Origin: a virus
Taxonomy: Duplodnaviria > Heunggongvirae > Uroviricota > Caudoviricetes
Length of the DNA stretch: 4,690 nucleotides
IMG/VR virus record: IMGVR_UViG_2565956720_000008
Reading direction: 5' to 3' (one strand)
This document shows, in pieces, positions 964 through 4,690 of the stretch. A program made the translations under genes and the position numbers. A model generated the notes under the pieces. It was not told the DNA's origin and did no database searches. It worked only from the letters and a program-made list of their open reading frames with translations. Within the stretch, counting starts at the first letter, position 1; every line of letters begins with the position of its first letter.

Positions 964-1155
964 TCATACCTGGTCTCTCTCATCTGCTTCTGCTTTCGCC
1001 ACCATCATTTCCAGCTTTTGTGAAAGGGATGCGGCTAACGTATGAAATTCTTCGTCTGTTTCTACTGGTATTGGCACAAACCTGACTCCAATTTGAGCGA
1101 GGCTATGTGCCATCTCGATACACGTTCTTAACTCAACAGGAGATGCTTTGTGCAT
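964..1155 (-). CDS. hypothetical acidic small protein (63 aa)
   Basis: Minus-strand ORF with ATG at 1155 and a G-rich stretch (ACGGGGGG) 5-9 nt upstream. Acidic, amphipathic-looking sequence. First gene of a leftward two-gene unit that ends at the hairpin near 621-649. Family not recognised by eye. Confidence 0.5.
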   Translation of the reverse strand: MHKASPVELRTCIEMAHSLAQIGVRFVPIPVETDEEFHTLAASLSQKLEMMVAKAEADERDQV

Positions 1156-1348
1156 ACAGCCCCCCGTTTATTATTTATCTCCTCAGCCAGTCGCTGTGCT
1201 TTCAGGGGATTTCGGATAACAGGAAGGCCGGGAAATACCCAGCCTCGCTTTGTAACGGAGTAGACGAAAGTGATCGCGCCTACTCGGGGAAAACATCCTT
1301 TCCTGCGATACGGAGAAGAGTATCCGGGAGCGGTTTTCTGTTTACCAG

Positions 1349-1798
1349 GTGGCGGGGCAGCGTGCCGGAAACGACGATGATTTCGGTGAGGCCACCACCA
1401 CCGCGCTGCGGGCCCGCACAGAGGACGCATTTATTGCCCGTTACCGTCCGATGTATATCAGGCAGACAGGGCAGGCTACGGGGGCTGGCTGTATTGCCCG
1501 TGCTGACTTTGAAGCCCGGCAACGGGCGGCGCGGACGGATGAAACCACCTATGTGGTGCAGGGCTGGCGACAGGGTAACGGTACGCTGTGGCAGCCCAAC
1601 CAGCGGGTGATTGTCTTTGATCCGGTCTGTGGTTTCGACAATACCGAACTGCTTGTTTCGGAAGTCACGTTTACTCAGGACCAGAACGGCACCCTGACGG
1701 AAATCCGTGTCGGCCCGCCTGATGCTTATCTGCCTGAACCCGAAGCCCCCGGCGCGCGGAAAAAGAAAAAAGCCAGAGTACAGGAGGACCCGTTCTGA
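1349..1798 (+). CDS. 5'-truncated remnant of a Mu gp44 / P2 gpD-like tail (baseplate hub) protein; about 150 C-terminal residues, likely pseudogene
   Basis: Sits immediately upstream of the gp45-like gene, with its stop TGA (1796-1798) overlapping that gene's ATG, the position gp44/P holds in the Mu order. The frame is open only back to an in-frame TGA at 1271-1273, with no ATG and only a GTG at 1349. Full-length gpD/gp44 proteins are roughly 380 aa, so the N-terminal part is missing. Family assignment is by position and general C-terminal character, not by alignment. Confidence 0.55.
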   Translation: MAGQRAGNDDDFGEATTTALRARTEDAFIARYRPMYIRQTGQATGAGCIARADFEARQRAARTDETTYVVQGWRQGNGTLWQPNQRVIVFDPVCGFDNTELLVSEVTFTQDQNGTLTEIRVGPPDAYLPEPEAPGARKKKKARVQEDPF

Positions 1799-2346
1799 TG
1801 AGGACGATTGAAGCCATGCAGCGACAACTCCTCGGCCTGATTGGGCGGGCCGTGGTGAAAAGCATCAGTGCCGCCACGAAATGTCAGACCGTGGATGTGT
1901 CCCTGATTGCCGGTGAACCCAAAGCCGGGGTTGAACATCTTGAACCCTACGGTTTTACCGCAAGGGCAAACAGCGGTGCGGAAGCGGTGGTGTTGTTTCC
2001 GGATGGCGACCGTTCTCATGCGGTGGTTGTTACGGTGTCGGACCGTCGCTACCGCCTGAAAGGGCTGCAAACGGGGGAGGTGGCTGTCTATGACGATCAG
2101 GGGCAGTCCGTGACGCTGACCCGGGAGGGGATCGTGGTGGACGGTGCAGGTAAAACGATCACGTTTCGCAATGCGCCCAGAGCACGTTTTGAAATGGACC
2201 TGGAAGTGACCGGACAGGTGAAAGACCTGTGCGACTCCGGCGGCACCACCATGTCAGCGATGCGGCTTGCCTATAACGGGCATCGTCACAGAGAGAACGG
2301 TCAGGGCAGTAACACCGACAAACCTGATAAAGCGATGGAGGCATGA
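1798..2346 (+). CDS. baseplate assembly protein V-like / Mu gp45-like spike protein (182 aa)
   Basis: ATG at 1798 with GGAGG 10 nt upstream. Size and sequence character are typical of gpV/gp45 baseplate spike proteins. Position in the conserved order gp44-gp45-gp46-gp47-gp48-fibre. Confidence 0.8.
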   Translation: MRTIEAMQRQLLGLIGRAVVKSISAATKCQTVDVSLIAGEPKAGVEHLEPYGFTARANSGAEAVVLFPDGDRSHAVVVTVSDRRYRLKGLQTGEVAVYDDQGQSVTLTREGIVVDGAGKTITFRNAPRARFEMDLEVTGQVKDLCDSGGTTMSAMRLAYNGHRHRENGQGSNTDKPDKAMEA

Positions 2347-2771
2347 TGGAACTGTGGCTGACGGTGAACGGTAAACGCACCTGCGCCAGCGCACCGCTGG
2401 ATCCGCTGACCCGCGCCGTGGTGATTTCCCTGTTCACCTGGCGGCGGGCGGAGCCTGATGACAATGCCGACGTCCCGATGGGATGGTGGGGGGATACCTG
2501 GCCTGCGGTACAGAATGACCGTTACGGCTCCCGGCTGTGGCTGCTTCAGCGCAGCAAACTGACCAATCAGCTGGTGCTGACGGTAAGGGGGTATATCCGC
2601 GAATGCCTGCAATGGATGATTGATGACGGCGTGGTGTCCCGTATTGATCTGGATATCCGCCGCACCGGGATTAATGAACTGGGTAACAGTATCACTCTCT
2701 GGCGTCGTGACGGACCGGTAATGATTTCTTTTGATGATCTGTGGAGTGCGATAACGCATGGCGGACAGTGA
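2343..2771 (+). CDS. phage GP46-family baseplate protein (Mu gp46-like), about 141 aa
   Basis: Two tandem ATGs at 2343 and 2346. GGAGG at 2337-2341 favours the ATG at 2346, which overlaps the upstream stop as TGATG. Size and position match Mu gp46. Ends 14 nt inside the next gene. Confidence 0.75.
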   Translation: MMELWLTVNGKRTCASAPLDPLTRAVVISLFTWRRAEPDDNADVPMGWWGDTWPAVQNDRYGSRLWLLQRSKLTNQLVLTVRGYIRECLQWMIDDGVVSRIDLDIRRTGINELGNSITLWRRDGPVMISFDDLWSAITHGGQ

Positions 2772-3816
2772 ATTTCAGCGCCCGACGCTGGCAGAAAATA
2801 TCAGTATGCTCCGTAACGATTTATTCGCCAGGCTGGACGTCAGCGACACGCTCCGGCGCATGGATGAAGACGTGCGGGCAAAGGTGTATGCGGCGGCGCT
2901 GCATACGGTTTACGGGTACATCGATTATCTGGCAATGAACATGCTGCCTGACCTGTGCGATGAGTCCTGGCTGGCGCGACATGCTGCGATGAAACGGTGT
3001 CCGCGCAAGGGGGCCACGGCTGCCAGCGGGTATATGCGCTGGGAAGGTGTCAGCGATGGCCTGAAGGTGACCGCCGGGAGTGTTATTCAGCGCGATGACC
3101 TGGTTCAGTATACTGCAACTGCCGATGCAACCAGCTCCGGTGGTGTCCTGCGCGTGCCGATCGCCTGCTCAAATGCAGGCGCGGTCGGTAACGCTGACGA
3201 CGGTACGGCATTAATCCTGGTCACGCCGGTGAATGGTCTGCCGTCTTCCGGTGTGGCTGACACCCTGACAGGCGGATTTGATACTGAAGAGCTGGAAACG
3301 TGGCGCGCCCGCGTCATTGAGCGGTATTACTGGACGCCGCAGGGCGGGGCTGACGGGGACTATGTCGTCTGGGCTAAAGAAGTGCCCGGCATTACCCGCG
3401 CATGGACATACCGTCACTGGATGGGAACGGGAACTGTCGGTGTGATGATTGCCAGCAGTGACCTGATTAATCCCATTCCGGAAGAATCAACGGAAACGGC
3501 GGCAAGACAACATATCGAGCCACTGGCCCCGGTGGCAGGCTCTGATTTGTATGTGTTCAGGCCGGTGGCACATACGGTGGATTTTCATATCCGCGTGACG
3601 CCGGATACACCAGAAATACGGGCTGCCATCACCGCGGAGTTGCGTTCGTTCCTGCTGCGTGATGGTTATCCGCAGGGAGAACTGAAGGTATCGCGTATCA
3701 GTGAGGCGATTTCCGGTGCGAACGGGGAATACAGCCATCAGTTGCTTGCACCGGCAGACAATATCTCCATTGCAAAAAATGAACTGGCGGTTCTGGGGAC
3801 GATTTCATGGACGTGA
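2758..3816 (+). CDS. baseplate J-like protein (Mu gp47 / P2 gpJ family), 352 aa
   Basis: Long ORF with uniform coding character and high GC. Length and position between the gp46-like and gp48-like genes match the baseplate J wedge protein. Start overlaps the upstream gene and stop overlaps the downstream gene (translational coupling). Confidence 0.85.
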
Positions 3817-4391
3817 CAAACGATGATTACATCCGTCTGTTGTCGGCACTGTTGCCCCCCGGTCCGGCGTGGTCAGCCAGCGATCCGGCGATTGCCGGTG
3901 CGGCACCGTCATTAACCCGCGTTCATCAGCGTGCGGATGCCCTGATGCGGGAGCTGGATCCGCGCACCACCACTGAACTGATAAACCGCTGGGAGCGTCT
4001 GTGCGGTCTGCCGGATGAATGTATTCCGGCAGGGACGCAGACCCTTCGCCAGCGTCAGCAACGGCTGGATGCGAAGGTTAACCTGGCGGGCGGCATCAAC
4101 GAGAATTTTTATCTTGCACAGCTTGCTGCCCTGGGCAGACCAGACGCTACCATCACGCGATACGACAAAAGCACGTTCACCTGCTCATCGGCCTGTACTG
4201 ACGCGGTGAATGCGCCGGAATGGCGGTATTACTGGCAGGTCAACATGCCAGCCGCCACAAACACCACCTGGATGACATGTGGCGATCCCTGTGATTCCGC
4301 GCTGCGTATCTGGGGCGACACCGTTGTCGAGTGTGTGCTTAACAAACTCTGCCCGTCGCATACCTACGTAATTTTTAAATATCCGGAGTAA
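3807..4391 (+). CDS. ymfQ: phage tail protein, Mu gp48 / P2 gpI-like, DUF2313 (YmfQ-like), 194 aa
   Basis: 194-aa ORF directly between the J-like gene and the tail-fibre gene. Length and context match e14 YmfQ-type proteins. The symbol is assigned by homology and context from memory and is not verified by alignment. Confidence 0.8.
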
Positions 4392-4395
4392 TCCA

Positions 4396-4690
4396 TGCAT
4401 CGTATAGACACGAAAACCGCGCAGAAGGATAAGTTCGGCGCGGGTAAGAACGGTTTTACCCGTGGTAACCCCCAGACCGGCACACCTGCCACCGATCTGG
4501 ATGATGACTACTTTGATATGTTGCAGGAAGAACTCTGCAGCGTGGTGGAGGCATCCGGTGCCAGCCTGGAGAAGGAGAGGCACGACCAGCTGCTTACTGC
4601 GCTTCGTGCGCTGCTGTTAAGCCGCAAGAATCCGTTTGGTGATATCAAATCGGATGGCACGGTGAAAACGGCTCTCGAAAACCTTGGTTT
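4396..4690 (+). CDS. side tail fibre protein, N-terminal constant (baseplate-attachment) region; partial, continues past the window end
   Basis: ATG at 4396 with GGAG 6 nt upstream. Translation begins [47 protein letters not shown]..., the conserved N-terminus of Mu S / P2 H / e14 Stf-type fibres. Not in the supplied ORF track because it has no stop inside the window. Confidence 0.85.
4672..4690 (+). other. putative DNA-invertase (Hin/Gin/Cin/Pin family) crossover site, left half plus core and start of right half; truncated by the window end
   Basis: Sequence CTCTCGAAAACC-TT-GGTTT matches the left 12-bp half-site of hixL-type sites (TTCTTGAAAACC, 10 of 12 identical) followed by a 2-bp core and the GGTTT start of the inverted right half-site; the reference site is quoted from memory. 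It lies about 92 codons into the tail-fibre gene, where the constant/variable junction of invertible fibre segments is expected. Confidence 0.45.

Follow-up and report, generated by a model that had tools for sequence, protein, structure and literature searches.

The abrupt rise in GC content that divides the DNA analyzed here, a 4,690-nt stretch from a tailed-phage record (hereafter, the window), is very probably the scar of one large internal deletion in a prophage of the SfI/SfV/e14 type at E. coli tRNA-thrW. Prophages of this type combine lambda-like early genes, an HK97-like head, and a Mu-like contractile tail. At the step, lambda-like exo-xis genes on the minus strand abut Mu-like baseplate genes on the plus strand, and intact genomes carry the same two blocks about 29 kb apart. 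The element to which the window belongs is a defective remnant of this family, not a phage.

Position and Size of the Compositional Step

GC content is 0.459 in positions 1-1280 of the window and 0.579 in positions 1281-4690. Calculated over 200-nt intervals, it stays at 0.40-0.49 up to about position 1200, passes through 0.50-0.56 over 1101-1400, and ranges from 0.51 to 0.64 beyond. A likelihood scan for one change point puts the boundary after position 1180 (2-lnL support interval, 1136-1352; LLR, 29.1), whereas across 1000 permutations the LLR averaged 2.6 and never exceeded 10.8; the same scan detected no second significant step in either the left or the right segment. The sharp shift that a first-pass annotation had read by eye, and had expected a computed profile to place near 1150-1350, is therefore real. 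In 60-nt intervals, the left side has a mean GC of 0.457 (range 0.35-0.58), in agreement with the value of about 45% proposed by that annotation, and the right side a mean of 0.580 (range 0.40-0.70; left vs. right, Mann-Whitney p = 2e-8). The baseplate genes are indeed richer, but the 60-70% initially attributed to them is slightly high, because only about half of the right-hand intervals (48%) have a GC of at least 0.60.

The two sides differ at each of the three codon positions, most of all at the third, with a GC3 of 0.454 on the left and 0.635 on the right, compared with 0.596 in the flanking host genes. Tetranucleotide usage also distinguishes the two sides. The correlation with the host is 0.54 for the left block vs. 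0.73 ± 0.07 for host chunks of equal length, and 0.76 for the right block vs. 0.86 ± 0.04 for host chunks; both blocks are thus atypical of the host, a qualitative statement only for segments as short as these. Measured against real genomic heterogeneity instead of shuffles, the step is big yet not extraordinary: adjacent segments of 1280 and 3410 nt differ in GC by at least 0.12 at 7 of the 681 positions in the host flanks and, within an intact relative prophage, at 16 of 720.

Gene Content of the Two Blocks

All open reading frames to the left of about position 1280 lie on the minus strand and correspond to the early-left (exo-xis) region of lambdoid phages. They include a DUF4222 gene at 29-307 (Pfam PF13973, E = 1.7e-19; WP_000488420.1 in E. 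coli B-JRPT-4119; GC 0.452) and a TraR/DksA-type C4 zinc-finger gene at 355-573 (PF01258, E = 2.8e-9; GC 0.457), whose product, WP_000763385.1, is also encoded by the intact prophage of E. coli MB15. A small hypothetical gene follows at 672-887, annotated as WP_000188870.1, with no Pfam match and with its reading frame open to 953. Annotation of its start varies, the gene being 216 nt long in B-JRPT-4119 and STEC346 and 252 nt in MB15 and FORC_082. Since lambda orf61 would map by alignment offset to about 798-983, the reading frame or the stop appears to differ from the lambda annotation. Downstream of this gene and before the TraR/DksA gene, a terminator-like hairpin with a T-run is found on the minus strand (651-633), which may be a pL-operon terminator of the exo-xis region. 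The block ends with a DUF1382 gene at 964-1155, which is a homologue of lambda orf63 by alignment (PF07131, E = 7.9e-32), and with a 5'-truncated DUF1317 gene at 1128-1287, homologous to lambda orf60a. At the nucleotide level, positions 378-1287 are 95.4% identical to lambda 30418-31328 (orf61-orf63-orf60a), and the left block is 98.2% identical to SfI 22625-23493.

The right block, on the plus strand, displays the baseplate gene order gpP(44)-45-46-47-48, recognized as the Pfam families PF21929, PF06890, PF07409, PF04865, and PF10076 in sequence, and is 97.9% identical in nucleotides to SfV orf16-21. It opens at 1280-1798 with the 3' half of a baseplate hub gene (Mu gpP/gp44-like, SfV orf16; GC 0.592), now a pseudogene. 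This is followed by the genes for baseplate assembly protein V/Mu gp45 (1798-2346; PF06890, E = 1.5e-24; WP_001259084.1), a Mu gp46-family baseplate protein (2346-2771; PF07409, E = 2.2e-32; WP_000424728.1), baseplate J/Mu gp47 (2758-3816; PF04865, E = 3.1e-53; WP_000785299.1), and the YmfQ/Mu gp48 baseplate wedge protein (3807-4391; PF10076, E = 1e-26; WP_000383556.1). The accessions of V, gp46, J, and YmfQ are the same as in intact prophages. The start of a tail-fibre gene at 4395-4690 is cut by the end of the window; the corresponding coding sequence is annotated at B-JRPT-4119 locus 24395-25141.

The first-pass annotation had noted that the shift coincides with a strand switch and a truncated gene. 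This holds, and in fact both genes flanking the junction are 5'-truncated and face each other, with Pfam matching their C-terminal parts only. The DUF1317 gene has lost its native start and its first 8-9 codons or so: the 48 amino acids remaining (1128-1274) correspond to positions 13-60 of the 60 in PF07026, and the intact gene measures 183 nt in MB15, STEC346, and lambda. The hub gene, 1080 nt at full length in TUM1226, MB15, SfV, and SfI, lacks its first 562 nt (about 187 of 359 codons). The 172 C-terminal codons that remain match the third and fourth domains only, PF22630 and PF21929 (E = 4.3e-19), and the gene is annotated in B-JRPT-4119 as 'incomplete, missing N-terminus'. A 100-aa minus-strand reading frame (1128-1430) spans the junction and fuses the C-terminal 48 aa of DUF1317 in frame to translated antisense hub DNA; annotators call just the 48-aa version, the longer one being a putative gene. 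A promoter consensus scan returned two promoter-like sites in the window vs. 2.7 expected, none of them near 1000-1500; the scar shows no sign of having gained a promoter. Searched against Rfam, the window has no match at or above the gathering score of any family.

The Junction

A three-way alignment of the window with its left and right parents locates the deletion junction at a 3-bp microhomology, TAC, at 1281-1283. Around this point the left parents read GCGCC TAC(C/G)CGG ATATT, the right parents GCTGG TACTCGG GGAAAAC, and the window GCGCC TACTCGG GGAAAAC. At 1281-1287, the left parents carry TACCCGG (MB15) or TACGCGG (STEC346), each identical to the window at 6 of 7 bases, and the right parents TUM1226, MB15, and SfV all carry TACTCGG. 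The parents share exactly just the three bases TAC, which places the crossover at 1281-1283. Accordingly, among 5426 complete E. coli genomes, left-only matches stop at 1287 (1283 if exact) and right-only matches begin at 1281, as do those to phages of the SfV type. Left-side matches are common, with about 1,500 genomes covering at least 80% of a query consisting of positions 1-1400. The junction itself is spanned in only 2 of the 5426 genomes, B-JRPT-4119 and FORC_082, and is 100% identical in these two independent complete genomes, one from a human source in Sweden and the other from chicken meat in Korea.

No repeats beyond chance two-copy matches flank the junction, no IS end lies at it, and the window contains no IS. 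The att core is matched there at 11-12 of 25 bases, the background level for the window, and the best fit to a Din-family (Pin/Gin/Hin) crossover site, scored with an approximate consensus, reaches 10 of 20 specified positions, again at background. A join at TAC with neither an IS end, an att core, a Din-family site, nor a flanking repeat points to recombination at the level of microhomology, and from the scar we infer illegitimate recombination of this type as the probable mechanism.

FORC_082 carries, besides the same junction, an IS1 (FORC_082 locus 2553-3320) in the DUF1382 gene, about 230 bp to the left. It is inserted at window positions 1045-1052, where the two pieces of the alignment have 8 bp in common, as expected of a target-site duplication. 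As this IS1 is missing from the window and from B-JRPT-4119, its insertion in FORC_082 is a later event. The window differs from B-JRPT-4119 at three bases (123, 756, and 2070) and lacks the FORC_082 IS1, so that its source represents a third carrier of the junction, outside the complete genomes searched.

The Host Element and Its Intact Relatives

The window matches E. coli B-JRPT-4119 from end to end with 3 mismatches. In this genome the element is inserted at tRNA-thrW after proA, with tRNA-Thr directly before int. Its left part consists of int, an HTH/xis-like gene, and the small genes, and its right part of the hub pseudogene, the baseplate genes, fibre and fibre-assembly genes, pinE, and a GIY-YIG gene. 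Direct att repeats of 56 bp (B-JRPT-4119 locus 18607-18662 and 30721-30776) enclose 12.1 kb. Between DUF1317 and the hub gene, no immunity, replication, lysis, head, sheath, or tube genes are found.

Those genes are present in E. coli MB15 (NZ_CP073984.1), whose intact prophage, also at thrW, carries both blocks between att repeats enclosing 40.7 kb, vs. 12.1 kb in B-JRPT-4119. The two elements encode an identical integrase (WP_224628705.1), HTH/xis protein (WP_000446903.1), and TraR protein. In MB15, the DUF1317 gene is followed by exo, bet, gam, and kil; the repressor and cro; O, P, and ren; the nin region and Q; and the lysis genes. An HNH gene and the terminase come next, then portal, protease, and capsid, head-tail joining, and the sheath, tube, and tape-measure genes. 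Beyond the tape measure lie a DNA-circularization protein gene, a full 1080-nt hub gene, and V, gp46, J, and YmfQ. The window aligns to this prophage as two collinear pieces, 1-1287 at 99.0% and 1281-4690 at 97.7% identity, and 28,918 bp are missing between them; given these unequal identities, and given that the best right-side matches (99.2%, TUM1226 and MS 69-1) have a different early-left region, this length and the gene content it comprises are a proxy for what was deleted. No demonstrable direct ancestor occurs among the genomes of the collection, and the ancestor probably resembled MB15/SfI. E. coli AL.H8, with 99.0% right-side identity and a similar chromosome size and coordinate, was considered as the intact ancestor and rejected, as its prophage occupies another site and has a yfdS/yfdR-type early region.

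The segmental distribution of GC in lambda DNA is classical knowledge, and the same asymmetry recurs throughout the relatives of the element. In the MB15 prophage, GC is 0.471 in the early half (0.462 in the exo-xis genes) and 0.549 in the late half (0.574 in the baseplate genes). SfI has 0.464 in exo-xis and 0.578 from the hub gene to gp48, the TUM1226 prophage 0.493 in its early and 0.548 in its late region, the e14 element of K-12 0.453 from int to ymfJ and 0.575 from jayE to ymfQ, and lambda 0.452 in exo-xis and 0.572 in its late genes. The contrast between early and late genes is thus intrinsic to lambdoid phages of this kind and older than the deletion.

Two further features of these prophages were observed. 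At 19439-19885 of the MB15 locus, between the tape-measure and circularization genes of the prophage, an OB-fold gene of very low GC (0.371) lies on the opposite strand; it looks like a moron insertion and is near the largest natural GC step of that prophage. In the intact SfV-type thrW prophage of TUM1226, Q is separated from the lysis genes by two genes (TUM1226 locus 524-2916) whose annotations are 'anti-phage protein' and 'nucleoid-associated anti-phage protein', which makes this interval a defence-gene cargo position.

Proposed Origin of the Step and Alternative Explanations

The following sequence of events would account for these observations. The ancestral prophage would have carried, in order, attL, int, xis, the AT-rich exo-xis small genes on one strand, exo-bet-gam, immunity, and replication, and then nin/Q, lysis, head, sheath/tube/tape measure, and the GC-rich baseplate and fibre genes on the other strand. 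Illegitimate recombination at the 3-bp TAC (1281-1283) would have removed about 29 kb, with one breakpoint at the start of the DUF1317 gene (orf60a-like) and the other midway through the gpP-like hub gene, leaving two 5'-truncated genes head to head. A compositional contrast that had been gradual and distant would in this way have become an abrupt step, through loss of the roughly 29 kb separating the two compositions.

The element displays the features of the SfI/SfV/e14 type, with a thrW site and att repeats, a Mu-like baseplate order, and lambda-like exo-xis genes next to int-xis, but it does not possess the complete gene set of a functional phage. The remnant, about 12 kb between its att repeats, is without pL/pR and the late promoter, the repressor and Q, and the replication, lysis, head, sheath, and tube genes; neither gene block keeps its native promoter. 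Having lost its repressor, replication, lysis, head, and sheath/tube genes, it cannot form phage particles. The accessions shared with intact prophages, together with a junction confined to two complete genomes and the source of the window, suggest that the deletion was a recent and lineage-restricted event.

The first-pass annotation had found the step consistent with modules of different origin joined at this point. The corresponding alternative is a modular (mosaic) joint, in which horizontal exchange newly unites two phage modules into a functional hybrid. The closest relatives do differ by side, lambda-like on the left and Mu/SfV-like on the right; GC, GC3, and tetranucleotide usage are unlike between the sides; and phages of this group are known mosaics (PMC3636060). 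A joint of this type is nevertheless very improbable here, given that the two genes meeting head to head at the join have each lost their 5' end, that no gene for replication, lysis, head, or sheath is present in the element, that both modules coexist 29 kb apart in intact genomes, and that the junction is so rare in E. coli. Among the 198 matching phage records, none covers the junction and none extends over at least 80% of the window. The same junction would be expected from a deletion across two tandem thrW prophages, a lambdoid one followed by an SfV-type one, an arrangement to which the location of the best left and best right matches in different genomes and the use of thrW by several related phages lend some credit. 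It is quite improbable, however: single genomes containing both blocks exist (MB15 and SfI), the integrase and xis of MB15 are identical to those of the element, no tandem arrangement appears among the loci examined, and a larger deletion and an extra element would be needed.

It is exceedingly unlikely that a mobile element or a site-specific recombinase generated the deletion, whether by IS1 adjacent deletion, by Int at a secondary att, or by Pin at a pseudo-gix, even though the element encodes Int and PinE and FORC_082 has an IS1 near the junction. Mediation by IS1 was rejected, since that copy lies off the junction (at 1045-1052, about 230 bp away) and is absent from the window and B-JRPT-4119; mediation by Int or Pin was rejected as well, since no att-core or gix-like site occurs at the junction, where the match to the approximate Din consensus and to the att core remains at background and the join has no flanking repeats. 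As for an assembly artefact in the form of a chimeric contig, repeated prophage DNA is a common source of misassembly and nothing specific points to one here; with an identical junction in an identical chromosomal context shared by two complete genomes that are independent and differ in country and source, its probability is negligible. A single deletion within one prophage at thrW thus stands as the very probable origin of the step.

Comparison with Known Prophages and Phages

The closest analogue of the element is e14, the cryptic prophage of K-12, which likewise has SfV-type morphogenesis genes; window positions 3029-4690 are 97.2% identical to jayE-ymfQ-stfP (e14 locus 11136-12797). It too is a deletion remnant that keeps the int end and the distal baseplate/fibre/pinE end, and it carries a 5'-truncated baseplate gene (the jayE pseudogene) at its scar, as the hub gene is here. 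In contrast, e14 is integrated in icd and not in thrW, its deletion is independent, with a breakpoint within J/gp47 (window position 3029) fused to a portal fragment, and its early region comprises ymfH-ymfM, with the repressor ymfK kept.

The Shigella flexneri phages SfI and SfV, as well as SfII and SfIV, integrate at thrW beside proA, as the element does, and the baseplate genes of SfI and SfV are 97.6-97.9% identical to window 1281-4690. SfI also has the early-left layout xis-DUF4222-DksA...DUF1317-exo of the element, with its two blocks about 29 kb apart. In the literature, SfI is a thrW-integrating mosaic in which morphogenesis genes like those of SfV/e14 are combined with lambda-like early genes (PMC3636060). 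Unlike the element, SfI and SfV are complete, inducible, and equipped with gtr O-antigen modification genes; no gtr genes (gtrA-gtrB-gtr(type) cassette) are annotated in the B-JRPT-4119 element, which is not serotype-converting by this measure, and about 29 kb of essential genes are gone from it. Lambda has in common with the element the exo-xis region and the contrast between early and late GC, but it has a siphovirus tail and its GC compartments are not adjacent, whereas the late module of the window is Mu-like and adjoins early genes because of the deletion. The MB15 prophage differs from the element in being intact and in having a DUF262 gene and a recombinase fragment at its right end.

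The comparison with e14 bears on whether the remnant has been kept for a function, as a domesticated module under selection instead of the product of a recent accident. Through independent deletions, both elements have kept the distal baseplate/tail-fibre/Pin-invertase end along with the small genes near int, the V, gp46, J, and YmfQ retained here do not differ from their counterparts in intact prophages, and the junction-crossing reading frame (1128-1430) would give the DUF1317 fragment a new N-terminus. Although these features are consistent with domestication, we assign this reading little probability.

Conclusions

The interpretation offered by the first-pass annotation is partly supported. 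The two sides are compositionally distinct phage modules, of lambda-type exo-xis and Mu-like baseplate genes, and the phrase 'modules of different origin' is a fair one for phage mosaicism. They are not newly joined, since the MB15 prophage and SfI hold both about 29 kb apart, and the join itself is a decay scar, not a recombination joint by which a phage was built. The phage family, the integration site, and the compositional asymmetry are all known, and the event amounts to ordinary deletional decay; a literature search on prophage decay returned nothing specific. The appropriate annotation for the element is that of a defective SfI/SfV/e14-family prophage at thrW whose scar carries two pseudogenes, and the finding matters little beyond annotation. 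As a rare marker, present in 2 of 5426 complete genomes, the junction could serve in strain typing. More generally, where GC changes abruptly beside a strand switch and a truncated gene, the step can be the scar of a deletion within one mobile element and need not mark a boundary between DNAs of different origin.
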